A DNA stretch of 63,801 nt, filler included, from Folioceros fuciformis (Eukaryota): assembly GCA_049999805.1 (NCBI GenBank). It is 7 parts of 7 records of this genome, joined end to end, with 100 filler letters (N's around TTAATTAATTAA, not from the genome) between each part and the next. Parts side by side here need not be neighbours in the genome. Positions count along the whole stretch, not along the records: positions 35,843 to 39,760 come from JBNGIO010001686.1; 6 more parts are not named here. One strand, written 5' to 3'. This document shows positions 5,253 through 59,222 of the stretch, in pieces (within the stretch, counting starts at the first letter, position 1; the number at the start of each line of letters is the position of its first letter). The notes under the pieces are model-generated. The model worked only from the letters and a program-made list of their open reading frames with translations. It searched no databases and was not told the origin of the DNA. Both the position numbers and the translations under genes were made by a program.

Positions 5253-5672
5253 CCGCCTCCCGACCGTGACAACAGAAACCGGACAGGACCACCAAAACCT
5301 CGCCGTGACTCCTGATGCTCACAAGCCTGCACAAATCTTTCACCTGACCTCCCTTTCCTGTCGCCCCACGGACCCGCTCAAAGAAGCGACCTTCGATGCG
5401 ACACAGGGGAAGGAACGAAAAAGCACTATGCCGGACGTACAACCCTTAAAGATACGCTACCCTGTCCACACGGACGGTTGCGGTTATGGACGCCATCCTG
5501 AAGCAGCTTAGTTATAGCTCTGATGAGCTCGATCAAACTAAACAATCTTGCTTCTCTGGGAAAGAACGAACATAGCGAGAGCAAATATATCAAGCTCTAT
5601 TTTCACTAAAAAATGAAAAAAAAAGCAAAGAGCCTGGCTGAAGGCTGTAGCGGTGGGGTGAGCTTCTCGGCG

Positions 5673-7138
5673 ATGGCTACGGCGGCCGTGGCCAGAGCGC
5701 CAGGCCCGCTGCTCTCCCGTCTCGGCCTCGGCCTCGAAGCCGGGATGCGAAACCGTGGCTGCGCCTCGATGCTCAGCGCGAGGGCGATGCGGATGAAGTC
5801 GGGCGAGCCTGAAGTTGCTGTTACTGTTGCAGGGAGTGTGGAAATGGAGGTGGAGACGCCGCTCTTCCTCCGGCGGGAGCGGTATCAGGTCCCGCTCCGG
5901 GAGCTGGCGTCTTGGAGGGAGGAGGCGAGGGAGAGGATTGCGGCCCTAGGGAGCTCGCTGGCGGAGGCGGATGGCGGACCAGACGCGGCGGAGTTGCGTG
6001 CGGAGCTGGACTGGCTGCTGGACGATGCCGTGCGGGGAGTGGTGGCAGTTTTTTTTTTTTTTTTGTGTAGCTGGAGGGAGGTGAGGGGAAGGCGTGAGGA
6101 GGAGGGGGTGCGGCTGGTGATGCGGGCCAGCTTGCCGGAGCTGCGGGACGGGTGGAGGCGGCGGGTGGAGGATAGAGTGCCGTTCCAGTACCTGGTGGGA
6201 TGCGCGCATTGGAGGGAGCTGGTGCTGGCGGTGCAGCCGGGAGTTTTGATTCCCAGGCCTGAGACGGAGGTGCTGGTGGAGCTGGCGGGGGCGGGCATGG
6301 ATGCTAGTCCCGGGTTGCGGCATGGGGTGTGGGTGGACCTCGGGACCGGGAGCGGTGCCATCGCTATCGCGCTTCAGCGGCTCCTCCGGCCCCCGGGACG
6401 TGTCATCGCGGTGGACGCCAGCCCTGTGGCGGTTGCCGTGGCCACGGCCAATGCGGCCAGATGCTCGGTTCAAGTGCGTTGAACTACCAGTCCATCCATC
6501 CATCCATCGCCGCTACTGCTGCTGCTGCTGCTGCTGTTGTTGGTCTGGTTTCGCCCGTTTTCGGAGTCCAGGCAAGCACGGATGTGCACATTTTGCTTTG
6601 CAGCAGTAGCAAGGATTTTGCGGACCAGGACCTGACCTGTTCGGTTTTGCTTGTTGGAGGGCGGCAGGGCATGGTCATGGTGGATGTTCAGCACGGGTCC
6701 TGGTTCTCCGCCCCAGGGCCCATGCATAATCTTGCAGGCGTGGTGAGCAATCCTCCTTACATCCCTTCCCCGCACCTGGAAGGTCTGCAAGCCGAAGTGG
6801 GCAAGCATGAGCCTCGGACAGCTCTGGACGGGGGTGAGGATGGGATGCATCATCTGCGGATTATCTGTGATGGAGCAAGTGCGGCCCTTGGACCAGGTGG
6901 CTTCTTGGCACTTGAGGTACGGCGGGTGGGTTTGTTTGCACATCCCGTTCTTTTCCTCTGGTCGAGGAGCGTGGCGTGCTGAATGTCGAGTGTTGTGTTG
7001 TGTGACCAGACCAATGGGGACCAGCAGTCTCAAGAGTTGGCTCAGCTTCTTGCTCATGGGACTTCCGTCTTTCGACAAGTTGAAATAAAGAAGGATTTTG
7101 CGGGGATTGGTCGTTTTGTGACTGCGTTCCATGTCTGA
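5673..7138 (+). CDS. prmC: HemK/PrmC release-factor glutamine methyltransferase, probably plastid-targeted; exons about 5673-6473, 6668-6916, 7010-7138
   Basis: Motifs VPFQYLVG, VLIPRPETE, VDLGTGSGAIA, SNPPYIP, HEPRTALDGG and KDFAGIGRFV. GT-AG introns keep the frame. Confidence 0.92.
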
Positions 7139-8156: not shown

Positions 8157-10673
8157 ATGTTCAGGATGCCAGAGGATGCAGCCAAGACACAGGCAGGAAT
8201 ATCTGACCAGGTCCAGCCGATTCAGGCCATAGAGGGCTTGAACCTCCTGGTACAACGAGGGTTTTATGTTCCCATATCCCTCTTCTACAAGGTCCTCAGA
8301 ACTTCGTCGAAGAGGAACATATTGGCCGGACAAGCTCTTAGTGATCTTGTTCTCAGAGCTGGATTCGAGTCGAACAGATTCTTAGCCAACCACTTCATCT
8401 GCATGTACGCTTCTCATGGGAGGTTGCAGGAAGCATGGCAGGTGTTCATAGCAATTCTTGCTCCTGATTCGTACATGTGGTCCTCCATTATCTTGGCTCA
8501 TGCTGACCATAGACAGCCCCAGGAGGCAATTAGGCTGTATTGGAAGATGCGCCAGTCGTCAGTGTTTCCTGACAACCATATATTCGCAGCAGTCCTTAAA
8601 GCATGTGTCAATGGTGCAGATTTAGCATCGGGCAGGCATGTGCATGCTGACGTTTTGAGCAGTGTAGTTGAGCCTGACGTATATGTAGGCAGTTGCCTGG
8701 TGGACATGTATGGAAAGTGTGGGAGGTTGGAGGATGCCCGGAGGGTGTTCGACCATATGACCACAAAAAATCTGGTTACCTGGACTGCCATGATTGCCGG
8801 GTACGCACGGCACGGGCTTGGGCAAGAAGCCCTTGCTGTTTATGCTAGTATGGAGGACGAGGGCTTCACCGTTGCTGACAGCTTTATGTTTGCATCCCTT
8901 TTCCAAGCTTGTGCTAGCATTGGTGATGTACATCAGGGGAAGGAATTTCACTCTGAGATTAAGCGAAGAGGATTGGAGGTGGATGTGGTTGTCGGCAGCT
9001 CCCTGGTGGACATGTATGCGAGATGTGGAGCCTTGGATGATGCCCGTCAGGTGTTTGACAGCCTAGGTACCAGAGACGTGGTCACATGGAATGCCATGAT
9101 TGCAGGATATGCTCAACACGGGCTTGCACAAGAAGCTCTTGCAGTTTATGCCACGATGCAGGAGGAGGGAATCAGTCAAGCTGATGAGGCTACATTTCTG
9201 TGCCTCCTCAAAGCGTGTGGCAGCATTCAAGCGCTACATCAAGGAAAGCAACTTCACTTACAGGTTCAAGAAAGTGGACTGGAGTCTGATGTAGGCATTG
9301 GGAACGGCCTGATTGACATGTATGTCAAATGTGGGAGCGTGGATGATGCACGGGTTGTGTTTGACAATTTAGCTGGGAAAGATGTGTTGACATGGACCGC
9401 CATGCTTGCAGGGTATACTCAGCATGGCCTTGGAGAAGAAGCCCTTGCCCTATATGCTGGCATGGAGCAGCAGAGCCCTGTTGTGGCTGATCAGGCGATA
9501 TTTGTGTGTCTCCTGAAGGCATGTGCTGGCCTTGGAGCGATGCACCACGGTGAGCGACTTCATGTCCAGGTTCAGGAAAACGGACTAGAGGCCGATGTGG
9601 TCGTGGGAAGCTGCTTGGTGGACATGTACACAAAATGTGGAAGCCTAATTGATGCCCGCAGTGTTTTTGACAAGATGGCCACTAAGAATGTGGTCACCTG
9701 GAATGTCATGCTCGGGGGATATGTTGAGGCTGGATTTGGACACGAGGCCCTTGCTCTTTACGCAAGAATGCAGCAGGAGGGCACTACCACACCCACGCAT
9801 GTCACTTTTGCGTGCCTCTTGAGGGCATGTGGCAGTGTTGGAGCTTTTCTTGTGGGGAAGGCTCTTCATTCTCAAATTCGAGAAAGGGGACTGGAAGCTA
9901 ATGCAGTTGTCGGTAGCTCCCTGGTAGACATGTATGCTAAATGTGGAAGCCTAGACGATGCTCAATGTGTATTCGAGAACCTGCCCGTAAAGAACGTGGT
10001 GACATGGAGTGCCATGATCGCAGGGTATGGCCAACATGGGCTTGGCCAAGAAGCTCTGCTGTGCTATGAGGAAATGCTGTTGGCCGGTGTCAAGCCAAAC
10101 GGAGTCACATTCCTCTTGCTTCTCTCTGCATGCAACCATGCCGGCCTAGTCGACAGGGGATCTGAGTACTTCGAATCCATGAGCAGGAAGCATGATATAC
10201 AGCCAGAGATCGAGCACTATGTGAGTATGATAGACATGTTGGGTCGAGCAGGGCGCTTTTGTACACTGGAAAGGTTGCTGTCAACCATGCCCATGGAGCC
10301 TGATCTGGCCTCATGGCTGTGCGTTTTGAGTTCATGCAGGAAGCACGGAAATGTATTGTTGGGAGAGCGAGCTTTTGCTTGTGCACTGCGTTGTGAGCCC
10401 AGCCATTCATCAGCATACGCACTCATGGCACAGATATATGCTAGTGCTGGCCTTGTGGACCAGGCAAAAAAGGTGGGGACCTTGAGAGACGTGAATTGCT
10501 GTAGGAAAGAACGTGCTCAAACTTGGATCGAGCATGAGCTGGGAACAAAAACATTCTGGGTAGGAGATGGTGGACACGGACAGCATGAACAACTCTATGA
10601 CGTGTTGGAAAAGATCACGGAGAGGATGAATTTCAGGACTATGCCCATCGACAGACATGCTTGTCAGAAGTGA
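8157..10673 (+). CDS. PLS-class pentatricopeptide repeat protein with E/E+ extension, no DYW domain
   Basis: Repeated P-L-S triplets (LVDMYAKCG..., DVVTWNAMIAGY, TFxCLLKAC), then HYVSMIDMLGRAG and E motifs. It ends at a degenerate PG box (KERAQTWIE...TFWVGD) with no HxE/CxxC. Confidence 0.95.
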   Translation: MFRMPEDAAKTQAGISDQVQPIQAIEGLNLLVQRGFYVPISLFYKVLRTSSKRNILAGQALSDLVLRAGFESNRFLANHFICMYASHGRLQEAWQVFIAILAPDSYMWSSIILAHADHRQPQEAIRLYWKMRQSSVFPDNHIFAAVLKACVNGADLASGRHVHADVLSSVVEPDVYVGSCLVDMYGKCGRLEDARRVFDHMTTKNLVTWTAMIAGYARHGLGQEALAVYASMEDEGFTVADSFMFASLFQACASIGDVHQGKEFHSEIKRRGLEVDVVVGSSLVDMYARCGALDDARQVFDSLGTRDVVTWNAMIAGYAQHGLAQEALAVYATMQEEGISQADEATFLCLLKACGSIQALHQGKQLHLQVQESGLESDVGIGNGLIDMYVKCGSVDDARVVFDNLAGKDVLTWTAMLAGYTQHGLGEEALALYAGMEQQSPVVADQAIFVCLLKACAGLGAMHHGERLHVQVQENGLEADVVVGSCLVDMYTKCGSLIDARSVFDKMATKNVVTWNVMLGGYVEAGFGHEALALYARMQQEGTTTPTHVTFACLLRACGSVGAFLVGKALHSQIRERGLEANAVVGSSLVDMYAKCGSLDDAQCVFENLPVKNVVTWSAMIAGYGQHGLGQEALLCYEEMLLAGVKPNGVTFLLLLSACNHAGLVDRGSEYFESMSRKHDIQPEIEHYVSMIDMLGRAGRFCTLERLLSTMPMEPDLASWLCVLSSCRKHGNVLLGERAFACALRCEPSHSSAYALMAQIYASAGLVDQAKKVGTLRDVNCCRKERAQTWIEHELGTKTFWVGDGGHGQHEQLYDVLEKITERMNFRTMPIDRHACQK

Positions 10674-22330: not shown

Positions 22331-22430
22331 NNNNNNNNNNNNNNNNNNNNNNNNNNNNNNNNNNNNNNNNNNNNTTAATTAATTAANNNNNNNNNNNNNN
22401 NNNNNNNNNNNNNNNNNNNNNNNNNNNNNN
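22331..22430. other. Assembly gap spacer N44-TTAATTAATTAA-N44 (also at 32666-32765, 35743-35842, 39761-39860, 43316-43415, 57794-57893)
   Basis: Identical 100-nt N-runs with a six-frame stop linker. Confidence 0.98.
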
Positions 22431-32180: not shown

Positions 32181-33719
32181 TGTGCATGCAAATGCTGATG
32201 CTGATGCTAATGTAAGGTGTTTTTCTAGGGTATATTTGTGTGCTTTTACTACCCTATTGCTACAAGTTAAAATATAGGAAGCTAAATTATATACAAACCT
32301 AAGAGTTCTAAACCTTCATGATTATGTATGGGTTTACACCACAAAATATTTGTCCTAAGACCTCCAAGATTTTGGCTACGCTTCTAAAACAATTTATAAA
32401 CTTATGCTTCATGGTTAAAGAACATCCTTATGGCTTAGTCTTTCTTTTTCTTTTCTCCTTGCATGTTTACAACACCTACATCGAAAGGTGATTTTATTGT
32501 GTTATGTTAAAATAAATATTTTTAGAAGAAAATAAGTTTAAAAAAATATTTTTAAATATTTTAACATTTATGAGTAATAAATTTGATCAAAATTAAGCTC
32601 TTATTAGAATTAGTTGCTGAAGTACAACTAAATGATACAAACCACCCACAAGTAAGAATTTATTTNNNNNNNNNNNNNNNNNNNNNNNNNNNNNNNNNNN
32701 NNNNNNNNNTTAATTAATTAANNNNNNNNNNNNNNNNNNNNNNNNNNNNNNNNNNNNNNNNNNNNGCCCCACTCTCCCCATCGACGGGTGCGTCCACCAC
32801 AACTGCCAATGCTGCAGGCGTTGCTCCACTGCCATCCTTGGCTGCAAGCACCTGCAGCTCCAACTCTGCATGAATCTCAGGGATTGTAGCATCCTCACCA
32901 CCCTTGCTACCTGTAGCCTCATCGCCACCCCAGCTACCCACAACCTCGCTCCTGATCCCCGAAGATGCAGCCTCCATTGACCCTCCTACAGACGCAACCA
33001 CCATTGCCCTTCCTGTACGCGTTGTGGCCACCACCCCTGTATGCACGGGTTCAAGGTGGTTCCCTCCCATGCTGTCTGCTACCATTGCCCCTCCATCGAC
33101 TGCGGTGGACACCGGCCCCGCTCGGGCAATAACAGCTGTTGCCCCTCCTGGATTGGCAGCCTCCACTGCCACTCCTGGAAGGTCAGCCTCCACTGCCCCT
33201 CCTACAGCAGCAACGACCGTGGCACTGCTTCTTGGTTCGGCCTCCTTCGCGCATTTTCCAGCACCATCAGCCGCTGCCCCTGCTGTTGGTTCCGCCTCCA
33301 CCGACCATCCTCCATCACGGTTGGTCGCTGCTCCTCCTATTCTGCCGACCTCCATCGGCCATACTCCACCAGCAGCTGCCGCTGCCTCCACAGCGGTCTC
33401 CCCACAATCTGCAGCCACACCTGTTCCTCCTCCTATGTTTCCCTCCACTGGCCACCCTCCGGCCACTACCTCCACAGGTGTCTCCCTAATATCTGCGAGG
33501 CCACGTCCACCCTCACCCTCGCCCTCCTCCCCCTTCCCGCTCACCAAAACCACCACTCCTACGTCTTCCTCATCTCGCTGCGATGGGCTCCATTCCTCAT
33601 CTCCATCTTCTTCATGCCTTGTGATTTCCTCCATTCCTACACCCTGCACAGACCTGCTCCTGCAGCTATCGTAGCCTTCCCTTCCCCGCTGACCTTCTGT
33701 CCCCGCTCCTCGCTCGCTT

Positions 33720-33990
33720 ACCAGCCCTTGCCTACAACCCCCCCTTTGCAGTCAGTCCTTGCCTGCAACCCCCGCTTTGCAGTCAGTCCTTGCCTACAAC
33801 CCCCGCTTTACAGTCAGTCCTTGCCTGCAACCCTCGCTTTGTAGCCCTTACCTGCAACCCTCGCAACCTGCAGCGATTGCCTGCAACCCTCACAACCTGC
33901 AGCGATTGCCTGCAACCCACAGCCCTCCATTGCAACCCCCTCAACTCGCAGCCCTTGCCTGCAACGCGCAGCCCTCAACTGCAACCCTCA
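33720..33990. repeat. Minisatellite-like (CCTGCAACCC-core, about 30-bp units)
   Basis: CAGTCAGTCCTTGCCTRCAACCCCCGCTTT and derivatives are repeated in tandem. Confidence 0.8.
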
Positions 33991-35507
33991 CATGTCTGCA
34001 CTCACCTCACGTTCCAAGTCGCAGATGTTGTAGCCCTCACCCCTTGCACTGCGCGTTCAGGCTTGCACACCCCGCACTCCGCGCTACACTACCAGCCTTG
34101 CCCTTGCACCCCACTCGCCTTGCAACCCTCCCCACCTCACCCCTGCGCTGACTGCAGCCCACGCTGCCTGCACCTGCCGTCCACCACGGCAACTCCCGAT
34201 GCTCACTTCCAACACAAGGCCGCCGCCGCAGCTTCCACCCGTTGCAACTACAAGGGCGGCGCAACTAGGTCTTAGTGTCACCACGGAGTCCTGCACACAT
34301 CGCAAGCCGGTCAATTCCCAGCAACTGTCGCTTCTACCTATGGGAACTGACCCTGCATGGTGGCCGTCGACACCTCCAACCCTCTGTCCAACGCGTTCGA
34401 TTCGCCACCCTCCTAATGCCGACTCGAATTGGATGCTAACAGTAGCACGCAGCGGTGGAAGCAGCCCGCCCAAATCCTACAACCCACAGCTCCCGGCTGC
34501 CACGACGCTGCTCTCCACTCTCCCGCCCGCACGCTCATGGTTCAGCATGTCACTCCCACGAGGAAGGTGCCGTTGTTTCGGTTTTCGGGTCGCCAAAGTT
34601 TGCAAGCACAGCCCGTTTCATGCTTGACAAAAAAACGAAACCCTCCACAGCTAGATGCCCTGTCTACCCTCGTCAGTCGTCGCGGATGCACCCTCCCAAC
34701 ACCGGGTTTCACCACTACACGATTTCGGGTTGCATAGTCCACCTATCGGCCCAGGACGGGCTGCCATCCTTGCCCGTTGGACTACTTGCTACTCTGATGT
34801 TTATAGCTGGTTGTCACACATATCCCCGAGATGTCTCACCTCCTGATATTACGCCATTTCCTTTTCTTTTGCACCAAATACATACGCATGTAACCCCACA
34901 CCCACATCCCATCATGCCCTACGCCCCCGTCTCATCAGGCCATCCCGCCGAATCGCCTAATCGTGTTTCCAGCACATGCTGTGGCCCACAGCCGACCAGA
35001 TCCATCCCCTACCTGTACTTGAAATATGTTCAAGAACGGACCTCCACGCCATCCACCACCTTCCCTACGGGTCGCGCAATGTACGGACCCTACACGGTCC
35101 TCCAATGCTTGTTGTGCACAAACAGGACTGCGCAGGACGTGTCCACATCCCTCACGATTGCCATAAGCTGGAACTCACACCCGATTACGGGATCATGTCC
35201 ATGGATACTACCTCCTCAAACAGACGAATCGTGTCCTTAGTTGTGTCGCCGCTTGCAGGATTGCATGCTTCCCGATAAGGGTTTCCCCATCCATTGTGCC
35301 TCTGTAGTCCCTTTGGTGGGGTTGTTCAGTGGGAACATGTCCTTGCCCGCAGCTCGTTCTCCCCCACACCCTTCACCTTCACACGCCTAAACCCGCGGGT
35401 TGGTTTATCTTTTTATATACTACGTTATGTTCCTGAATTCTGGCAAACAGCTATCCTTCACGCCTCAGTGGCGGCTCCGTCTACCCTCACATGGCGTTAA
35501 ATGCATG

Positions 35508-35742: not shown

Positions 35743-36301
35743 NNNNNNNNNNNNNNNNNNNNNNNNNNNNNNNNNNNNNNNNNNNNTTAATTAATTAANN
35801 NNNNNNNNNNNNNNNNNNNNNNNNNNNNNNNNNNNNNNNNNNATAGAGTCACTATACAAGGGAGCTCAAGGGGGTATTTATACCCCCTAGAAGAGCTCCC
35901 TAGGAAGCTTCACAAGAAGCGCATAGGAAGCTGCTCAAGAAGCTTCCTACAAATTAGCTTAAGCTAATCTAAACTAATGGTACTTAATTAGACACTAATC
36001 TTAGACTAAACACATTAGTCTAAGCACATTGGGCTTTAATAACCCTACAGTTGTCATCCACTCACCCACTCTTGTTTGGGTTCTTTTGTGTGTGCTGACT
36101 GATACCACGGGAAGCCACGGGATTTAACATTGTGCCCAACAATGAAAGCTGTTTCAGTGACAGCTACTTCACCTCAAAAGAGGAGGAACAGGATGTCAGC
36201 TCTTGGGGCGATGCAGATGCTCGCGTAAGCAGAGATAAAAGGCCCAGGGTGCAAGTTTTGAAGAGGAGCCTACACGGGTAGTAGAGGCAAGCACAGAAAA
36301 G

Positions 36302-38924
36302 TTGGAGAGGGTTGCGCAAGACGAAAATAATTTGAATGCAGTCCACAGGAAAGCCCATGCAAAGCGGATTCGATCAACAACATTTGATCTTCATGTCAAC
36401 ATCCTTCATCTAGCCAGTTACATAACAGCAAATGCATAGATATGGGAGATAGATAAAGCGTGGATGAAGTGCCAGGTCAGACAGATGCAAGCAGGGTTAG
36501 TTAAGGAAGGCATTTTGCCTCTACTTTGTATGATAGATCCTAAAAAGGCTTCGAAGAAAGAAGTTTTGTTGAACAAGATCACAACGCAATAGTATCACAT
36601 GGGAGTGCTTGGAGAAAACCAATGCTTCATAGCTATGCAGAAGTTGTACCACATGTTCCCAGCTAAGACAAGTATGAAAGGATGGAGGGGCATGTATATG
36701 CAGGACTAACACAGGAGGAAATGAGGGTGCTCGCAGTTGATCATAATGTATATGCTAACAAGAGAAAGAGAATGGGCTTCATTGAGCAAGTTAAGTATAT
36801 CCATGATGAGCTTGATATCTTTTACAGAAAACACGGCTTGGATGAGAAGTCCCCTGTGAAGTGGAAGTTCAACCTATACAGGTTGCTTGGAATGAAGGCT
36901 GAAGGAGGAGACCCTCGCGACACTGATTGGGTGCAGAAAATGGTAGACAGGCAGACATTACCATATCGAGTGGCCAGGTGTAGTGGGATCCTGTGGAAAA
37001 ACATGGATAGGATATTCCTAATGTGGGAGAGGAGTGAGCTCCCTGAACATGTAGTAGGAGGAAGCCATGGGACAAAGAAACGTGCAAAAGCAAAGAGGAA
37101 ACCTGAGGAAGCTAGACTCGCTTCTAGTGGTGCATAGATGTTGGATTAGTCATCAAAGAAGGTTGCAGCAATGCAAGGAAGGCCTTGGAGGGCTTTTCAG
37201 GGAGTCCTAGTAGGGCTTAAAGGCAAGGAAATGCTAATAGCTGTGACGCAAAAGGTCATCCAAGGCAAGCTGCACTTGAAAGACATGGACACGGAGGTAG
37301 GGAAGAAGAAAAAGGTACATATGATACAACATGCTCTCAAGATAGCTTTGAAGTGTGCAACATTTCGGGAAGCGGAAGAGTTGTATCCCCAGCACACAAA
37401 AGACTGCCGTCTACTCAAGTTCCAAACTTTATTTGCTAGGAAGGTACGTTTTCCATTTCTTGAACTACGGGAGGAAGGGGGAGGGCGTCGGCCAGCCGGC
37501 GCCCTTCCTCTAGTGAATGCTCCACCCTAGCTTTCAAACGGAAGGAAGGGGGAGGGCGCCGGCTGACCGGCTCCCTCCCCCTTCTTCCCGTATGAAAGCC
37601 AGGGTGCCTATAGGGCAAAGTCATGGAAGATGTGACTTGGGGGCACTGTTTGGCCGACGCCCCCCCCCCCCTATCGCTCCCTTTTGTCTCTGCAATTGCA
37701 TATGGACGAAGTTACACCTAGTGCAAGCTTGCTCATGTATAATTTGTTGTTTTTGGGTTCCAGCAATTGAAGGATGTCGAGCATCTCTTAAAACTTCCCG
37801 AGGAGTTTCAGAAAGGTCTCGACAATGAGCAAAGGGCAATGGTAGACAGGGACTTGCAGGATGGGTTGTTCACCTACAAGTCCAATACGTCGTGGAAGCT
37901 TGGACAGTTCAAGATATGAGGGGATACATGCGCCACCGAAACTATGGCCTTTCAGTGATGGATGTTCCAAGGGGGTTTGAGATTGGACCTATGGATGGCC
38001 GTGTTGATGGAGGAGTATTCCACAATGTGTTCGCTAGCTTTGTTGAGAAAACAACAAACGATGATGTTTTGCTGGTCGTTATGCATGGTGTGGAAGATGC
38101 GCACACTATGAGAGACTCTATGAGGAAACTGTGTAAGGGGGTGGCCTGGTCTCATTTGTCTGGAACAAGACAAACATAGCAAACGATAGAGAAGGTTTTG
38201 AGACTGTGGAATATGTAAAAATTGGTTGGTGTGTAAAGGCAGGAAGTAGTAAAGGATGCACCACGATGATGCCAGGTCCACAGCAGGGAACCTTCAATGG
38301 TGGAAGATCTATTATACCACACGAAACCGTCATCAAAAAACATGTCTACTTCTCCCACGATAAGTGTGTCATTTGCCCATATTAGAGACCATTGGGGTTA
38401 ATGGGGATGATTATGCATAGCTTCAGCAGGGAGGGGAAGTGGGTTGTGGATGCGTGCTTAGCAGCGGGACTACTTTGTTGGTAGCGTTGCTTAGTGGACG
38501 ACATTGCGTTGCAAAAGAGGGAGACAAGAGATGCACTACCTATATTCCTCAGTGAATCCATGGGTATGAAGTGCTCCATGATGCAGAGGAAGAGCTAACT
38601 TTTGAGCCGCATCAACGAGGACCTTCCCAATTTCGAGCCAAGGAGGTTTGCATAAGCGAGAAAGACTTCACACGGGCTCAGGTTGTTTCTCTAACTACAA
38701 AGCGAAGGATCCGGCAAGCCACCGAGGCCTTGGAACACGGTTAGCAAACTCTCTAGAGTGTATGGGAGGGCCCTAATGGTGAGGATGGTGGTGATGAAAA
38801 CACTACAGTTGATGATAAGGCGCTAGAGGAGATTGACAACTTCAATGTAGACGATAGCTCGCGCCTGCACAATGTCAATGTTGTGTTGGATTCTGAGGCT
38901 CACCAAGATCCTCCTGTGGCATAG
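36302..38924 (+). pseudogene. Pseudogenised ParB/Srx-like domain + beta-class N4-cytosine/N6-adenine DNA methyltransferase fusion, one intron (37444-37763)
   Basis: Stitched translation: *IWEIDKAW...LPLLCMIDP...VLGENQ...VYAGLTQEEMRVLAVDHN (ParB-like); then YGLSVMDVPRG, FVWNKTN, VEYVKIG, PY*RPLGLMGMIMHSFSREGKWVVDAC/xSGTTLLVALLSGRHCVAKEGD (N6_N4_Mtase motif order). Confidence 0.8.
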
Positions 38925-40035
38925 AGTTTTCATAGAGTTGAGACAAGTTTTTGTAAATTGCTAATGTAGGAAAGAAAACTTGACATGTTCAATGCCTGAC
39001 CTTTCTGTTACATGGTATGATATTCATTTGGAGCCCACTCCATTTTGTCATTAAATAAGAAGCGGGCGCCGGTCGGCTGGCGCCCTCCCCGCTTGTCGTC
39101 CTGCATGCGTGCTGCGAACTCCCTGCATTTCATTGCCGGTTGTAGGGTAATAGGCTTAAGGATTCCGGTCATACGTCGATCTGATGTATACTACGAATGG
39201 TGTAGCTTTTTGTCAAGGCGGTCTACCCCTCTACTAAGGGGGGCAGGACATTAACATGTTGTAACTTTCTCATGTTGGCTCTTGAAGAGCTCTAGCACTA
39301 TGTGGCCTTAGTCACAGCATAGCACACGGACCTTTCGGAGGCCAAGTGGCGTCTAGAGTATTGAACACTTCGGAGAATGGTGGTAGACACTATCCAGCAA
39401 CTAGACGACTGTCATGCTGTGCCGCTAAACATCGCACTCATGCATGGTTCATTAGTTAACAATACTCACACTACACCACACCACACCACACCACATTACA
39501 CACACATTAAACACTGCATGTTGGTGCTGCAGCTTTATAAGAGTGAAGCGTTTGCTTCCTTCAGATACCACAAAATCTCCAGTTGCATCCACACTTCTCA
39601 GAGCTATGACTTGGTGTGGAGACCACATGGTAGATAGGTCTCTTAGAAGATGGGTAGTATTTGTTTTTTTTGGAGTTTTGATAGAATTCCTTGGAGAGGT
39701 AATTAGGAAACTATGTTAGATAGGGCTAGATTAGATAGGATGATCAGGGGATAGCGGTGGNNNNNNNNNNNNNNNNNNNNNNNNNNNNNNNNNNNNNNNN
39801 NNNNTTAATTAATTAANNNNNNNNNNNNNNNNNNNNNNNNNNNNNNNNNNNNNNNNNNNNACAAAGAAAAATAGGAAATATGACCAGAAAATCAAGGAAA
39901 ATTAGGGAAAATAAGTTGAAAAAGAAAACCAAACCATACCACTATTAACCCTTTTTCAACCAAAACAAACTACTACCCCAAACTTTGGAGGTTCACACAG
40001 GCGCCGATCCAGGTCTCGTCCTTGGAGGCGTCGAT

Positions 40036-43315: not shown

Positions 43316-43415
43316 NNNNNNNNNNNNNNNNNNNNNNNNNNNNNNNNNNNNNNNNNNNNTTAATTAATTAANNNNNNNNNNNNNNNNNNNNNNNNNNNNN
43401 NNNNNNNNNNNNNNN

Positions 43416-43760
43416 TTGATTGAGATAGGCTTGATCAATCAAGGGAGGCAGTGAAATTGAGAACGATAGGCTTGATTGAGATAGGCTTGATCAATCAAGG
43501 GAGGCAGTGAAATTGAGAACGATAGGCTTGATTGAGATAGGCTTGATCAATCAAGGGAGGCAGTGAAATTGAGAACGATAGGCTTGATTGAGATAGGCTT
43601 GATCAATCAAGGCAGGCAGTGAAATTGAGAACGATAGGCTTGATTGAGATAGGCTTGATCAATCAAGGGAGGCAGTGAAATTGAGAGCGATAGGCTTGAT
43701 CAATCAAGGGAGAGGCGATAGGCTTGATCAATCCTCGCAGTGAAACTAAGAACGATAGGC
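43416..43760. repeat. 56-bp tandem repeat (about 5-6 copies) continuous with copia RNase H sequence
   Basis: Unit TTGATTGAGATAGGCTTGATCAATCAAGGGAGGCAGTGAAATTGAGAACGATAGGC, period 56. Confidence 0.9.
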
Positions 43761-46700
43761 TTGAATCCCAACTCTTCTAATAGACTACGCAACCATATCC
43801 ATGGCTGCAGAGCATGTTGACATGAACTCTGCTTCGGTAGAAGACAAAGCAATAGTAGATTGTCTCCTACTATTCCAAGAAATAGCTCCTCCATTCAACA
43901 TAAAAGGCATATTCAGTAGTTGACTTATGACTATTAACATCTCCTGCCCAATCAAAATCACAATGTCCTACCAATTTGGCTTCAAACTGATGCCTTTGTT
44001 GATACACCAAATTCCAATCCTTCGTACCATTCAAGTACCTAATGATCCTTTTTACGGCTTGAAAATGTTGTCCAGGGTTAGCCATGAATTGACTTGCAAC
44101 TCCCACTACCTCTACAATGTCTGGCCTTGTCCCTGTAGACAAATATGTAAGGCAGCCAACAATGCATTGCTAGAGAGTTTTATCTACATTTGCCTTCTCT
44201 TCCTCGATCGTAGGACTCATCTCCTTCGACAACTTCTTATTCAACACCATTGGTATCTTTACTGGCTTGCAGTCTTGCATCCCAAAGCGCTTAAGAACGT
44301 TCTCAATGTATGTCCTTTGACTCAAAGAGATCATCCTGTTAGTCATGTGCCTCATTACCTTTATCCCTAGAAAGTAATGAAGTTCTCCTAGATCTCTCAT
44401 GTCAAAACTATCATTGAGACTTTTCTTCGTACTCTTCAAGAGATCCAAATCATTGCAAACTAAAATGAGATCATCAACATAGAAAGCAATGATCATCATG
44501 GACTCTCCTACTCTCTTCACATTGATGTTCCAATCTCCATTAGTTTTCTTGAAACCTCTAGCCAAGAAGAACTTATCAATCTTCACATACCACGTAAGTG
44601 CATATTACTTAAGGCCATAGATTGCCTTTCGCAATTTACATACCTCATCTTCTCGACCTATTACTTCATACCCTTCTGGCCGATTCATGTAGATTTCTTC
44701 TTCCAAATCTCCATTGAGAAATGCCGTTTGGACATCCATGTGATGTATCTCCAGATCCATGGTAGCCGCTATCGCTAAGAGTTCACGAATGGATGTTATC
44801 TTGGCAACAGGGGAGAAAGTGTTGGTGTAATCAATACCTGGCACTTGTGTATATCCCTTCCCAACCATCCTTGCCTTGTAACACTCTATGCTCCCGTCGG
44901 CGTTGTGCTTGATCTTGAACACCCATTTCGATCCTATGCACTTCCTTCCTTGAGGAAGAGGAGTGATCTCCCAAGTCTTGTTCTTGATGAGTGAGTTATA
45001 CTCATTATCTAGAGCTCCTTTCCACTCCTTCGCCTTTGGTCCTTCCAACACTTTCTTCAATGTTTGTGGCTCATCGGCCTCTACTAACAGAGCCACTTCA
45101 TACTCACATGCATTCATGGACTCCAAGATCTTGTGTGAAGGTTTCCATCGTCTTGTTGATCTTCTGAGTTGGGTTGGTTGTTCCTCTTGGATTCTTCGAT
45201 CTTGCTCTTCTTCATCATCTTCGATGCTTCGAGTTTCTTCATCTCCTACGTCGTCTTGATGCAGAGGTTGCTCATGCTCCAGAGTAGGTTGAGTTTGCTC
45301 CAACGTATGTTGCTCAAGAACCAAATCTTGAGGGACTTCATCTAGTTGCCTCAACTCCTTGACAACAACTTGAGTTGCTCCCACTGTTTTGTTAGGTTCC
45401 ACAACTTCATGAAAAACAACATTTCTATTGAAGATGATCTTCTTGGTAGAAGGGCTATACAACCTATACCCTTTTACCTCATCGGAGCACCCAAGCATGA
45501 TGCATTGGGTGCCTTTAGGATCCCACTTGGCCCGATTCTGTTTCGGAACATGAGCATGAACCACAGAACCAAAAATCCTAAAATGACTTACATTTGGTTT
45601 GATACTAAACCGTGCCTCCTCCGGAGTCATTCCAAGCACAGCCTTAGTTGGAACTCTATTCAAAATGTAAGTTGATGTAATAACAGCCTCTCCCCAAAAA
45701 CATGCCTCCAACCCACTTTGATGGAGCATGCATTTTGCCGCTTCCACTAGGCTTCTTAGCTTGCGCTTCGCTACTCCATTTTTCTCTGGTGTGTGAGGAA
45801 TTGTGAGTTGTCTTTGAATGCCATACTCCTTGCAAAAGCTTTTGAGTTGAGACGAGATGTACTCCCCTCCATTGTCACTTCTCAGAGTCTTAAGGCATTC
45901 TCCACTCTCGTTTTCCACCAAGGCCTTCCACACCTTAAATGTGTTGAACACCTCGGATTTCTCCTTCAAGAGATACGTCCAACTCCTTCTTGTGAAGTCA
46001 TCCACGAAGACTAGAATGTAGCGCGCTCCGCCATGGGTAGGATTCTTCATTGGTCCGCACACATAGGTGTGTACAAGCTTCAACGCCTTTGTTGCTCGAC
46101 GCACTCCGATCTTGAGGAACTTTGTTCGATGAAGTTTTCTCATTATGCACCCTTGGCATAATTACGGCTCTCCATCCTCCTTCAAATCCAAGCCTTTCAC
46201 CATTTGATGACTCTTCATCAACTTGATGTTGTCCACTCCAGTATGTCCTAAGCGTTGATGCCATAGATCAATTGACCCTGTGCTTTGAGGCGAGCTTGAC
46301 ACAATTGTGTAAGCTTCTTTATCTCCTACAGAAGCACACAACTTGTAGAGATTGCCTTCTCGAACACCTCGAACTATCACCTTGACAGTAGGTGATTTGG
46401 GTTGCTCGGGTTGGTTGCGGCATCCTTTCCAATTGAACACAATCTCATTTCCTGGGTCAGTGATTCGTGCTACTGAAAGAATATTCTTCGCAAGACCAGG
46501 TACATGGTGTACATCCTTGATAGTACCTTTGGATACTCCTCCAAGTAGGTTTACCTTCATCACGCCTTTCCTTTTGATCTCATGTGACCAATTGTCTCCA
46601 AGTGCCACCTTATGCCCTATCGGCATTTCTTTGTAGCTTGAGATCCAAGGTCATTTGTAGGTGAAGTGTTGAGATGCTCCAGAGTCTACGTATAGACTCT

Positions 46701-48161
46701 CATCCTTCTTTGATGAGCACTCTCGCACTTGCTCTATTGTTGAAGCAACAAACATATGTTCTTCCCGCCCACTTGCTTGATTGACTTGTGACTATCTTCC
46801 CTTCTTCAAGTCAGCCAATCTTGTCCTACAGTCTTTTGCATAGTGGTTAGGTTTCTTACAGTAATGGCAAGTACCCTACGTCTTCTTCTTTGTAGCTTTT
46901 TGCTTTGATCCTTCACCAAAGTTGTCTTGTGAGGTCTTTCCTTGTGACTTTCCCTACCTTGAAAAGAGTATTGAGTCACCATTGTCTTCATTCTTGAATG
47001 AATTCTCCAGCTCCTCTTGTAGAAGCAAACCAACCACCTCTTCCAACATTGCTTGTTTGTCGCTTGGACGCATCGATGCCGCTATCTTAAAGGCCAAAAC
47101 AAATTGCTTGTACAGTGATGGTAAGCTACTCAACAACACCACAATGATCCTTCCTTCGGATGGTTTGATGTCCGCTGCCTTCATTTGATCACCCAAGTTC
47201 TTTAACTTGTTGACGTGTTGTTGAATGGTGTCCCCTTCAACCATCTTGAAGTTCGAAAGTTGTTGCTCCAACATCTCATTCACCATACTTCTCTTTTCGT
47301 ACATGTTGCAAAGGGTGCTCCACGCCTTCTTCGATGTTGCACACTCACTCAATTGAGAGAGTATGTAGTCAGACACTTTGAGAAGGATTGTCGTCAATGC
47401 TCGTCCATCCTTATCAAGGTCTCCTTCGGTGGGTGTGTCTTCGAGGCCCTTGTCGACGAATTTCCATACTCCTCTCTCAATGAGAAGCATCTTCATCTTC
47501 AACTTCCACAATGTGAAGTTCTTGCCTCCAAACTTCTCCACCAACCGCGTCTCAAGAAGGCGTGTCTCCACCCTTGTTGACCCCATCTATTGTATGCTCT
47601 CACTTCACTCTCAAGCACTAGAAGGATTGCTACCAAGTCCTTCACAATTGCACACAAGCACAAGGCTAAGAGTTTGGCTATTGCACGCAAGTTCTCACAA
47701 GCATCAAGCTAAGAACTATGCAATACAAGTTGACACAAGCATCCAACTAGGAGAAGTCTACAAGGCACTAGTACATTGCTCTAATATCATGTTAATAAGA
47801 AAAGGATCTACGCCTTTATAAAGAAGTCATACAATGTTCCCACACAGTATGGGACATAAGTGTGCTAGGCACACTTGTACAACAAGATGGCACACAAGCC
47901 TACACACAAGTATGCACTACCCTTGGGTAGCCTAGACCTTTATAAGCTTTTAGGCCTTCCATGCTATTGGTCCTTGACTTGCCCCTTCCCTTGTGGGCTT
48001 GACTTTGGCGTGCCCCTTCAAGATGCTCCTTTGTCTTTATGTAGAAGATGCTTCCTAGTCCTTATCTAGAAAACTCATTTTTATGGCACCTTTCATATAG
48101 ACTAGTTTAGGGCACTCTTCATAAACTTATTTTGATATGTTGTAATCAACCATTTCTAACA
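43760..48161 (-). mobile_element. Ty1/copia LTR retrotransposon, frameshifted; 5' LTR about 47790-48161, PBS about 47778-47789
   Basis: Domain order is gag (KNFTLWKLKM, 46954-47586), protease (YVDSGASQH), pre-integrase (LWHQRLGH), integrase (VDDFTR, LRSDNGGEY), RT (HMDVQTAFLNG, YVDDLIL) and RNase H (DFDWAGD). The LTR runs TGTTAG...TTAACA and is followed by TGATATTAGAGC (decayed Met-tRNA PBS). Confidence 0.95.
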
Positions 48162-56837: not shown

Positions 56838-59222
56838 TGCTCTGGTAGCTCCAGACTCCTGCTCCCTGTGCGGTCTCCAGGTCAATTCATAGCCTTGTGG
56901 TGACCTGCCTTCGTGCATGAACTTCGCGTGGCCATTGTGGTCCAGTTTCCTGAAGGAAATTTACAAGCGTTTGGAGGGCATAGGGTTTAAGTGATTCTGA
57001 CCGTGTTCTATGTGGGGACTTGGTCGGGACGTTTCATCTTGCCAATTAATTTGTGCGATCTATATGTTGTCTCTAGCATGAGAGTGTGGGGTATGATCTG
57101 AATGCACTGGGACCAGCCTCGTGCACCAGGCAAAAGTCAGGCAAGCGGAGCATCCCACAGTTCTGGTCCCAGCTTGCGGGCCGTCACCTTGTGCAGGACG
57201 ATATTGGATAAGTTTTGCAATGCTGGCAGGCTCCCGTCATTGTGCGTGTCACAATCGATTATGGCACTCAAGGTGTGGAGGTGCCTGGCAGTGTCGTACC
57301 GTGTACCATCTCCGACATGGCGCACAACGCGGAACTGGGTCTCCTCATTCGAAGTGGAACGCCATCTCGGTCATTTTGTTGGGCAAAATGACACAGTTGT
57401 AGAACGTGGGTGGAACAAATTGTCTCTACTCGGTTTGGAGAAGGTGGTCGACTGGCTCTTTCGGGTAAGAACCTCGTGAATTTTCCCAGCAGGAAGATTG
57501 AGGAAAGGCTACCTTCAAAGCTCGTTGTCCGCTGGGGTTGCAAGTTCGACTGTTTGGGATATTAATTATCAGCTTCATTCCAGGGAAGTCACTCAAGGTT
57601 CTTGGAATTGTGTTCCTGGAAAGCATGTGAATCCTTGTGGATTCAGAGCTGGCTGAACCCCTTCTGTCCGACAGCCGAGTTAGCTGTCGTGGGAATCGCT
57701 GAACATGTTTTGCTTGCGGACTGTGAAGCCTCGGGTGAGCAATATGAGAGGTGTGAAGCCTGCGCTTTTCAGTTGCACTGCCTTCCCCTAGACNNNNNNN
57801 NNNNNNNNNNNNNNNNNNNNNNNNNNNNNNNNNNNNNTTAATTAATTAANNNNNNNNNNNNNNNNNNNNNNNNNNNNNNNNNNNNNNNNNNNNCCTCACG
57901 GTCATTAGGAACCCGAGCTTTATGCGTTTCACCTGACAAAAGAGACGCGGGACAAGCGGGCCTGGCCCGTTGCTGCCGGTTGCCCTGTGGGTCGTGACCG
58001 CGTGACCGGGAATCGGTCAAGGCGGGGAGGGCCTCCAATTATGGAGCACTGTGCCACAGCCAGAGCTGGGCTCCGTGGCCCTTGCCTCACCATGGCCTGC
58101 CTGGCGCTGCCGAACTTTGTTTCCTTTTCTATCATTATTTGTATGGAGGTCGGAGGAGGGGGCTGGAAACGGTTTTCACTGTATCGCCGTCCGCGGCACA
58201 TGTCCACACCATTATTACGCTCCACGTGACCGACCGGGAATTCCCGGTGGCCGTCCCTGCCACTAAGGGGTGGCTCGAATCCCGAGCCCAAGACCGAGCC
58301 GGAACCTCGACCCGAACGGGGCATGGTGAACGGGGCTGTTTCCTGTCTCCTGTCTCCTGGATCCTCCGTCCGTGTTGGATGTAGCGCTCCATGTGCTCTC
58401 TCTACTCGGCTGGACACCTCCAATAATGCACACAGGGGCTAGGGGCAGAGAGGGGTAGGTGGTCGGTGGACTCCCACTCGCTCCACTGTCGTGCTCCCTC
58501 GTCATTGTCACGGCGCCTGTGGAAAGGGCTTGAAACGTGGAAGCTTTTCACTCTCCTTCTACCTTGCCGTGCTTGCAATGTCAAGCTGCCTTGCCCCTTC
58601 CTACTGCTTCTCAAACTCCTTGCTCGCTACTGGAGGGAGGAGGAAGAAGATGAAGCAGCCTAGTCTAGCCTACCCTGGACTGGGCTGGCCTGGCCTGGCC
58701 TGGCCTGGCCTTGCCTGGCTAAGCTCGATGTAACTCCATTGGTCCCTCCTTCTACCCACCTTCCTTGCTGTTGCTCGTGTTGCAGTTGTGTAGCAGTATT
58801 GTACCTGGAATATCGTGGGTACATGCCCTCTATGTATGTAAGTGGTCACTTGTTGTACAACAATTAGGGCACGATGTTGCCCACGCGCAAGACACCAGCG
58901 GGGCATAAGCTTTGCGTGTCTCTGCTCATCCTTCACTTTTCTGGCCTGCTCAGGGGAGTCGTGTCGCGAGACCGACTGCCTTTGCGGCTATCACGCGTCA
59001 AAGCTTGCGAGTTAAGCAAGCACACCACGTTGTTTTCATACAGAGGAGGAAAGAAAGGGGGGAAGGAAGGATGGGCAAGGGCCCTTGAAGGGCAAGGCAG
59101 GGAAGGAAATTAAGGGAAGGCAACGCAACCGGAGACATTCAGTGCTGTTGCAACGGAATAGAGCGCTGGAGCTCACCGAGGGGAGGAAGTAGCGGGGTCC
59201 AGGGCCGGATCCATCCGCACGC

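Follow-up and report, generated by a model that had tools for sequence, protein, structure and literature searches.

A decayed ParB-methyltransferase fusion gene in Folioceros fuciformis as one member of a multi-copy, intron-bearing eukaryotic family of probable phage origin

Few eukaryotic captures of bacterial-type N6/N4 amino-methyltransferases have been described (rotifer N4CMT, Marchantia DN4MT1, and haptophyte and algal clades), and each of them altered ideas about the DNA marks available to eukaryotes. In the sections of PMC4738411 that deal with them, the haptophyte 'clade 6' group-1 methyltransferases are presented as a lineage-expanded, haptophyte-restricted set, fused to FHA and derived from enzymes of the phage ParB-terminase locus, and a chlorophyte and chytrid family is presented in which a ParB helix-turn-helix is fused to a Dam-type methyltransferase of the M.EcoKI/TaqI-like group 2. 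Rotifer N4CMT is described, in the available portion of PMC8885841, as a permuted PF01555 enzyme with introns and a C-terminal chromodomain, present as an allelic pair and without a ParB domain; the same portion states that the enzyme is without eukaryotic homologues. The Marchantia enzymes MpDN4MT1a/b carry a canonical TSPPY motif, form a tandem pair and are sperm-specific, and the accessible part of their account (bioRxiv 10.1101/2021.02.12.428880) does not contain the word 'ParB'. The present analysis concerns a stretch of 63,801 nucleotides from Folioceros fuciformis (assembly GCA_049999805.1), referred to throughout, at its full length, as the window. A decayed gene at 36287-38924 on its plus strand was interpreted, with a probability of roughly 0.88, as a pseudogene, a dead copy belonging to a multi-copy eukaryotic family with introns and of probable phage origin, in which a ParB-fold domain is fused to an amino-methyltransferase.

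A HMMER pass with the 156-residue open reading frame (ORF) at 36667-37137 against 1.84 billion representatives (E <= 0.001) returned 7 matches, 6 of them true, collinear relatives; the best was P0001 (1.2e-16), and another was P0003, a hypothetical protein of Adiantum nelumboides. The seventh match, P0002, was a repetitive protein in which a 37-residue stretch was matched five times, and was set aside. Searches with P0003, and then with P0027, gave 39 and 34 matches, and the relatives recovered comprised 42 distinct Adiantum records (39 from A. nelumboides, 3 from A. capillus-veneris) and 9 JGI, ENA or Logan clusters. When relatives were compared with the whole 63.8-kb window by tblastn, matches fell at the ParB-methyltransferase locus only: P0001 aligned over 36658-37434 (5e-35), P0004 over 36287-36903 in two frames (2e-14), and P0047 (4.8e-9) and P0027 (6.5e-7) each aligned as three collinear pieces, in three frames, across 37865-38597. 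A profile of three phage proteins, described below, scored 36.1 bits against P0027, 27.8 against the spliced gene of a metagenome locus (L002) and 23.6 against P0047; against the X-joined read-through of the window its score was weak, 5.0 bits, though the match was collinear and none of 200 shuffles scored higher than 3.3. Nothing was found by a word-indexed search with the window piece 38137-38484, short out-of-frame window pieces could not be placed in the family alignment by MAFFT, and P0003 showed no significant BLASTP match to one window piece (0.36).

The reading path of the window copy was set by homology to these relatives. It is interrupted by 8 in-frame stops and 4 frameshifts, contains a single phase-0 GT-AG intron, and is laid out as follows.

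36287-36664, plus strand: exon 1, first frame (frame 2); N-terminal half of the ParB/Srx-like domain; tblastn with P0004 spans 36287-36679
36667-37443, plus strand: exon 1, second frame (frame 1); rest of the ParB-like domain (AGLTQEEMRVLAVDHN) and long helical linker; frameshift near 36665
37444-37763, plus strand: intron, GT..AG, phase 0, spliceosomal-type
37764-37862, plus strand: start of exon 2 (frame 0); pre-methyltransferase segment (KLPEEFQKGL...), aligning with Adiantum and L002 downstream of the common intron
37865-38134, plus strand: methyltransferase N-lobe (frame 2); frameshift near 37862; DVPRG at 37961-37975; tblastn with P0047 spans 37865-38095
38137-38457, plus strand: methyltransferase middle (frame 1); 1-base loss at 38134; FVWNKTN at 38155-38175, an E-containing strand and PY*RP
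38463-38924, plus strand: motif I remnant (SGTT...GRHCVAKEGD) and acidic tail (frame 0); 1-base loss near 38459; tblastn pieces at 38463-38597
36437-36439 (TAG), 36590-36592 (TAG), 37135-37137 (TAG), 37147-37149 (TAG), 38383-38385 (TAG), 38553-38555, 38742-38744 and 38754-38756: in-frame stops
38922-38924, plus strand: terminal TAG

The stops at 36437 and 36590 interrupt the first frame of exon 1, and those at 37135 and 37147 its second frame. It was this second frame that gave the 6 true relatives by phmmer and the P0001 match at 5e-35, and its alignment with L002 stops at the end of L002 exon 3. The middle of the methyltransferase was also covered by tblastn with P0047 (38158-38451) and with L002 (38299-38469), while the C-terminal acidic tail aligned with L002 and two further metagenome loci, L007 and L011. 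Most of this layout had been anticipated by a sequence-only reading of the window. The N-terminal block at 36440-36747, DVPRG and FVWNKTN were found where that reading had put them, as were PY*RPLGLM with its TAG at 38383-38385, and SGTTLLVALLSGRHCVAKEGD with the acidic tail running to the TAG at 38922-38924. Its peptide '...SNTSWKLGQFK' proved to be out of frame, homology placing the frame change near 37862 and not near 37915. The verdict that the copy is dead was upheld by the stops, the frameshifts and a degraded ParB motif.

In two DNA runs carrying the host species label, which may come from the same sample as the assembly, contigs were identical to the window over 36027-36528, 37170-37471 and 37670-39447. 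A second host copy was present in the reads, about 88% identical over 37974-38667; this paralogue was one A longer after 38134 and again after 38459 (two frameshift sites of the window copy) and indels of its own at 38180 and 38519, and both copies look dead. Among host reads, the N-terminal exon (36400-37420) occurred in roughly 5-25 variant contigs and the C-terminal exon (37800-39300) in about 2. Some of the N-terminal variants had internal deletions, with joints at 36895>37156 and 36895>37262, and the ParB-like N-terminal fragment seems to have been amplified separately in the host. The window copy itself would make no protein, and is of no functional interest except as a pointer to the family.

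The evidence that the family includes genes in better condition came from a scan of metagenome contigs with P0025, which identified ten loci. L002, from an unrelated lineage, had 6 exons and five introns of 91-134 bases, all GT..AG, and 1024 codons without a stop, on a contig that ends before the stop codon; judged by its sequence, it is apparently an intact family member. The window intron begins GTACGT, ends CAG and is in phase 0. L002 exon 3 ends, also in phase 0, exactly at the end of the window alignment (37440-37443), and exon 4 aligns after 37764; the window intron therefore has the same boundary and phase as L002 intron 3. The ORFs P0001, P0005 and P0008 leave the family alignment at the same point, with a V-initial (GT...) tail. 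Since the boundary is common to L002 and these three ORFs, the window intron can be taken as inherited from the family, and the phase-0 GT-AG intron called earlier from the sequence was supported. The other introns of L002 are absent from the window copy. Much of the window intron consists of a GC-rich palindromic repeat (core GGGGGAGGGCGCCGGC) at 37466-37606, which recurs once, at 39064-39091 in the 3' region of this contig, and is otherwise absent from the window (6 matches, with 0.02 expected); it could be a small hairpin element that inserted into the intron.

Ratios of non-synonymous to synonymous substitution (dN/dS) between copies, calculated for the ParB exon only, were 0.20-0.27 for deeper pairs and 0.37-0.62 for closer pairs. 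Because dN/dS lay between 0.20 and 0.62 in this exon, the family appears to be kept as a protein under purifying selection. Full-length relatives (P0031-P0035, P0039 and L002 1005-1457) carried an extra N-terminal extension of 150-300 residues, which had no Pfam match and, for L002 exon 1, no usable ESM Atlas match. The window copy is without this extension, and its contig starts in repeat.

The methyltransferase domain was identified by PF01555 (N6_N4_Mtase), which exceeded its curated cut-off of 26.7 bits in 5 of 10 relatives (P0009, 42.3; P0027, 41.5; P0045, 39.0; P0037, 37.9; P0018, 36.4 bits) and matched an exon of L002 at 35.1 bits. A profile of 24 family members, when compared with PDB, matched M.RsrI (1e-5), the Thermus methylase 2zie (0.002) and M.MboIIA (0.008). 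Motif IV precedes motif I, a permuted order, in the window (DVPRG at 37961, SGTT...E-D at 38463-38526), as it does in every aligned member and in the phage protein. Motif I reads FAGTGTT...VECDP in Adiantum and, across an intron, FSGSGTT...SIDNDP in L002; in the window it is broken by a frameshift (DAC / SGTT...AKEGD). Motif I was conserved in four lineages, as was the acidic residue that follows strand 2, and a W-x-K-[PT]-N element and the C-terminal tail were conserved in the multi-lineage alignment. Canonical motif IV is (D/N/S)-P-P-(Y/F/W). The corresponding residues were DPPY in the phage enzyme, DAPY in Adiantum, DIPH in L002, DIPR in L007 and DVPR in the window. As the relatives also have DAPY, DIPH or DIPR, the atypical motif IV, which had already been remarked upon in the window, is not merely a product of decay, and reads as a trait of the family. 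A match of the reconstruction at 37900-38530 to Rossmann amino-methyltransferases, put forward earlier as a check, was obtained through homologous proteins, which match PF01555, M.RsrI (1e-5) and a phage ParB-methyltransferase (6e-13). The methyltransferase domain of DIRS1 was considered and rejected, since the relevant section of PMC4738411 assigns it to a different, PCIF1-like group.

The N-terminal domain was modelled on the relative P0041, which is 20-26% identical to window pieces. Its AlphaFold model (18-row alignment) had a pLDDT of 81 and was matched by Foldseek to ParB, Noc and Srx chains with probability 1.00 (E from 1.4e-4); among the matches listed through rank 47, all were ParB, Noc, KorB, PadC, sulfiredoxin, SbnI or other ParB-like structures. 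Alignment with five ParB/Noc structures by VIA-align gave Z of 10.8-10.0 and rmsd of 2.0-2.6 Å over 92-98 residues, compared with Z of about 3 for unrelated rows; for Myxococcus ParB the values were Z 10.8 and rmsd 2.1 Å over 94 residues, at 26% identity. A ParB/Srx fold for the N-terminal domain of the family is supported by this predicted structure, and the ParB-like call made for the window was borne out in this way, through the predicted fold of P0041, and by no sequence profile. The ParB motif is V-[IL]-G-G-[SN]-H-S in the family and V-I-G-G-H-Q-R in the phage fusion; in exon 1 of the window copy, GG[SN]HS has decayed to GENQC. A search of ESM Atlas with P0032 returned its own cluster and fungal DUF3723 clusters at 0.88, below trust level, and a Pfam scan of relatives that accepted E-values up to 1 did not list PF12520; that DUF3723 might share a ParB-like fold is a lead only.

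The ParB-like and methyltransferase parts were joined, on one strand, in 5 of the 10 metagenome loci (L002, L003, L007, L010 and L011), the other five being too short to tell, and also in Adiantum models such as P0009, P0010, P0018 and P0039. The co-occurrence of the two halves, which the sequence-only reading had singled out as a point to check, was thus seen in both sets. A tblastn search of phages with P0027 gave 39 records (best 2e-5); among the 15 records listed, 69-72% of P0027 was covered and all were annotated methyltransferase regions. All three matches inspected, of the 39, were ParB_N + N6_N4_Mtase fusions of 416-422 residues, with 24.0, 25.2 and 26.7 bits for ParB_N (cut-off 26.3) and 94-101 bits for N6_N4_Mtase, and one of these was encoded immediately upstream of the small and large terminase subunits. 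In a BLASTP comparison, P0027 aligned with the Javan100 protein (QBX22820.1) over 257 residues at 25% identity (6e-13), and DAPY was placed on DPPY. No terminase genes were found beside the eukaryotic loci, which had introns and plant-type repeat neighbours instead.

Since the two-domain order is common to the phage proteins, the transfer of a whole phage or prophage ParB-methyltransferase gene to a eukaryote is, on sequence comparison, the most likely origin of the family; introns, a longer linker and tails would have been gained after transfer. Read from the N-terminus, the family architecture comprises a lineage-variable N-terminal extension, the ParB/Srx-fold domain, a helical linker of ~250 residues, a permuted amino-methyltransferase (beta-class, M.RsrI-like) and an acidic tail. 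In intact members, the ParB-like domain would hold the protein on DNA, the C-terminal domain would bind S-adenosylmethionine (SAM) by means of the conserved F-x-G-x-G-T-T...E/D-x-D-P elements, and methyl would be transferred to the exocyclic amine of adenine or cytosine. With a motif IV of D-[AIV]-P-[YHR], some lineages may have changed or lost catalytic activity.

Several results weigh against this interpretation. Pfam found no relevant family on ORF pieces of the window (0 of 10, and 0 of 7 further ORFs, minus-strand and flanking ones included), so the domain identities rest on relatives; with that proviso, the earlier identification of a ParB-like and amino-methyltransferase fusion gene was right in substance. 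For the C-terminal domain, the Pfam and PDB matches lay mainly over the motif I end, an AlphaFold model of P0027 (24 mostly Adiantum rows) had a mean pLDDT of 48 and was too poor for a fold search, and motif IV was off the canonical pattern in every eukaryotic member read. For the N-terminal domain, PF02195 was absent from the 16 relatives scanned, the L002 ORFs and the window pieces; an N-terminal family profile matched only a sigma-factor stretch in PDB (E 0.32), hhalign of the family against the phage ParB-methyltransferase found no match in the ParB part, and tblastn of P0041 against phages gave no match. ParB uses the arginines of its GERR box for CTP binding. These arginines are replaced in the family (GG[SN]HS), and a CTP-dependent clamp is for that reason an unlikely role for the domain. 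The phage origin, for its part, rests on best matches in one phage collection, not on a tree.

Set against these points, the resemblance of the window copy to the family is difficult to dismiss. Chance similarity, or bacterial or phage contamination of the assembly, would suit a small, unplaced contig that itself has no Pfam match, but the E-values against eukaryotic relatives run from 5e-35 to 4.8e-9, the GT-AG intron sits at a conserved position, and the high-copy flank repeats occur also in runs of other studies under the same species label, leaving this explanation a negligible probability. Only slightly more credible, and still very improbable, is the suggestion that the gene is intact and its breaks are assembly errors. 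The frameshifts at 38134 and near 38459 do lie in short A runs at which the paralogue is one A longer; however, the two DNA runs, albeit possibly from the same sample as the assembly, give the same letters over most of the gene, all eight in-frame stops arose by substitution, the ParB motif has decayed, and the paralogue carries separate indels, at 38180 and 38519. A more serious doubt concerns the intact members, which could be pseudo-enzymes that bind DNA, and perhaps SAM, without methylating. The second proline of motif IV is missing from all eukaryotic members read, L002, L007 and the window have H or R in place of its aromatic residue, and the methyltransferase domain of DIRS1 provides, in the relevant section of PMC4738411, a precedent for an inactive domain borne by an element. 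Yet in the D-A-P-Y of Adiantum both aspartate and tyrosine are retained, four lineages conserve motif I together with the acidic residue that follows strand 2, and the ParB exon, to which the selection test was applied, is under purifying selection; loss of activity throughout the family was considered possible, if rather doubtful.

How the family came to be multi-copy is less clear-cut. Many decaying copies, as seen in the sequences, suggest that it spreads on mobile DNA, and the balance leans slightly towards carriage of this kind over an ordinary host gene. If the family were the cargo of a transposon or integrated virus that copies it around the genome, the window would hold one decayed insertion, and this was given slightly less than an even chance. 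It would account for the 42 Adiantum records, many of them truncated or chimeric with retroelement domains (the chimeric models being P0043, with gag/Ty3 capsid, P0028, P0036 and P0058), for the many host N-terminal fragments with internal deletions, and for copies truncated at differing points beside LINE-like and Ty3 remnants (L007, L008); dN/dS of 0.2-0.6 is typical of element-encoded genes, and the prokaryotic relatives are themselves phage genes. Around none of the copies, however, could a transposase, an integrase, terminal repeats or a target duplication be found, and loci resemble one another only within the bounds of the gene, from about 100 bases ahead of the ATG as far as the stop codon. 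The neighbouring retroelements inserted separately, L007 having its own 300-base pair of long terminal repeats (LTRs), and the retained introns speak against retrocopying. Viral contigs scanned with P0041 contained no relative, by a method that sees close relatives only. The alternative, that a horizontal acquisition was domesticated as an ordinary host gene family and amplified by segmental duplication, with the window as a dead duplicate, was thought somewhat less probable. The intact, multi-exon L002 with its canonical introns, the intron position conserved across lineages, purifying selection and the lack of visible mobility machinery around copies are all in its favour, but dozens of broken fern copies and many host fragments would be unusual for a housekeeping-type chromatin enzyme.

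At L007, the repeat pair comprises 300-base direct repeats (5406-5705 and 8969-9268, 95% identical) around minus-strand, Ty3-type gag remnants; it represents an LTR retrotransposon whose insertion point is 18 bases beyond the stop codon of the ParB-methyltransferase copy.

Six identical linkers show the window to be a chain of at least 7 separate contigs, with the pseudogene alone on a 3918-base contig (35843-39760) and repeats on both sides of it.

22331-22430, 32666-32765, 35743-35842, 39761-39860, 43316-43415 and 57794-57893: linkers, each 44 N + TTAATTAATTAA + 44 N, with cores at 22375, 32710, 35787, 39805, 43360 and 57838
35843-36049: left flank, end of a very high-copy host repeat, outside the gene
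39410-39760: right flank, moderately repeated host sequence

Because the contigs are merely joined by linkers, proximity across a linker carries no meaning. The other contigs contain a copia element (44170-47586), PLS-type PPR genes, a UBE2O-like gene and TAF6, which show a plant assembly and nothing more; the 'plant transposon island' in which the gene had been placed by the sequence-only reading was an artefact of these joins. Both flanks of the pseudogene contig are unrelated host repeats. In the two DNA runs, the left repeat had a summed contig depth of 1e4-1e5, and 39 and 36 contigs diverged right after 36049; the right flank reached depths of up to 450-1300, with 13 contigs diverging before 39410. 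These flank repeats recur in runs from other studies that carry the same species label. Within the left flank, the repeat at 35900-36049 had internal 45-base 'goes back' joints and a sharp end at 36049 (...CCCTACA), and could be the end of an LTR or satellite-like element. In run X2, a contig connects 36049 with 39542 and omits the 3492 bases between them, whose ends are GT..AG; it was considered as the 'empty site' of a 3.5-kb insertion, an idea that was dropped, both sides being repeats and the join, with 40 letters on the shorter side, appearing in this one contig only. Rfam gave no match on the contig 35843-39760. On separate contigs, long overlapping, proline/alanine-rich open frames were observed on both strands at 32714-35240, with tandem periodicities of 31 bases and roughly 27-29 bases at 33691-33992, and this region is low-complexity repeat DNA without genes; another contig starts at 43416-43756 with 56-base units arranged in tandem (5 overlapping 117-base copies, 98-100% identical).

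The family in ferns and other plants is undescribed so far; a search of full-text literature, supplements and subscription journals lying outside its coverage, found no description of the plant family. It adds a plant lineage in which a whole phage ParB and methyltransferase gene seems to have been captured and then given introns, a long linker and dozens of copies. Given an apparently intact gene and purifying selection, its members are concrete candidates for the writing of N6-methyladenine (6mA) or N4-methylcytosine (4mC) in ferns and relatives, and the family also allows the role of a ParB-fold domain in the eukaryotic nucleus to be tested. The boldest form of this idea is that ferns and other plants harbour a still-active, self-amplifying family of phage origin, whose ParB-like domain loads a D-x-P-Y/H methyltransferase onto DNA to write 6mA or 4mC; this is speculative and was considered unlikely. 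If true, the enzyme could mark or protect the DNA of its own element, or add an unrecognised base modification to plant chromatin, and the family would be a further independent eukaryotic capture of PF01555 and the first to retain the phage ParB partner.

Among known systems, the haptophyte clade 6 enzymes, compared here by their description in part of PMC4738411, resemble the family in their ancestry at the phage ParB-terminase locus but differ in carrying FHA rather than ParB. The chlorophyte and chytrid proteins, as characterised in the same source, are alike in that a ParB-derived module is fused to an adenine methyltransferase in eukaryotes; the plant family, unlike that group, combines the permuted, M.RsrI-like type with the N-terminal (Srx-fold) domain of ParB. 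Bdelloid rotifer N4CMT, known here by description from a portion of its paper, is also a bacterial-type PF01555 capture with introns, and Pfam scans of the relatives and L002 showed no chromodomain. Marchantia MpDN4MT1, again compared by partial description only, is likewise a plant enzyme of prokaryotic amino-methyltransferase ancestry. Motif IV was D-x-P-x in all family members read, in contrast to the S-P-P-Y type of MpDN4MT1 and N4CMT. The closest relatives are the ParB_N + N6_N4_Mtase fusions of the phage and prophage ParB-terminase locus, exemplified by QBX22820.1 of Streptococcus phage Javan100, with which the family shares the domain order, the GG-x-H ParB motif, the whole methyltransferase domain and the position of motif IV upstream of motif I. 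Those proteins, however, are 416-422 residues long, with DPPY, a short linker and no introns, and one that was inspected lies beside terminase genes, whereas the eukaryotic proteins have about 1000 residues, introns, an N-terminal extension, a ~250-residue linker, an acidic tail and D-[AIV]-P-[YHR].

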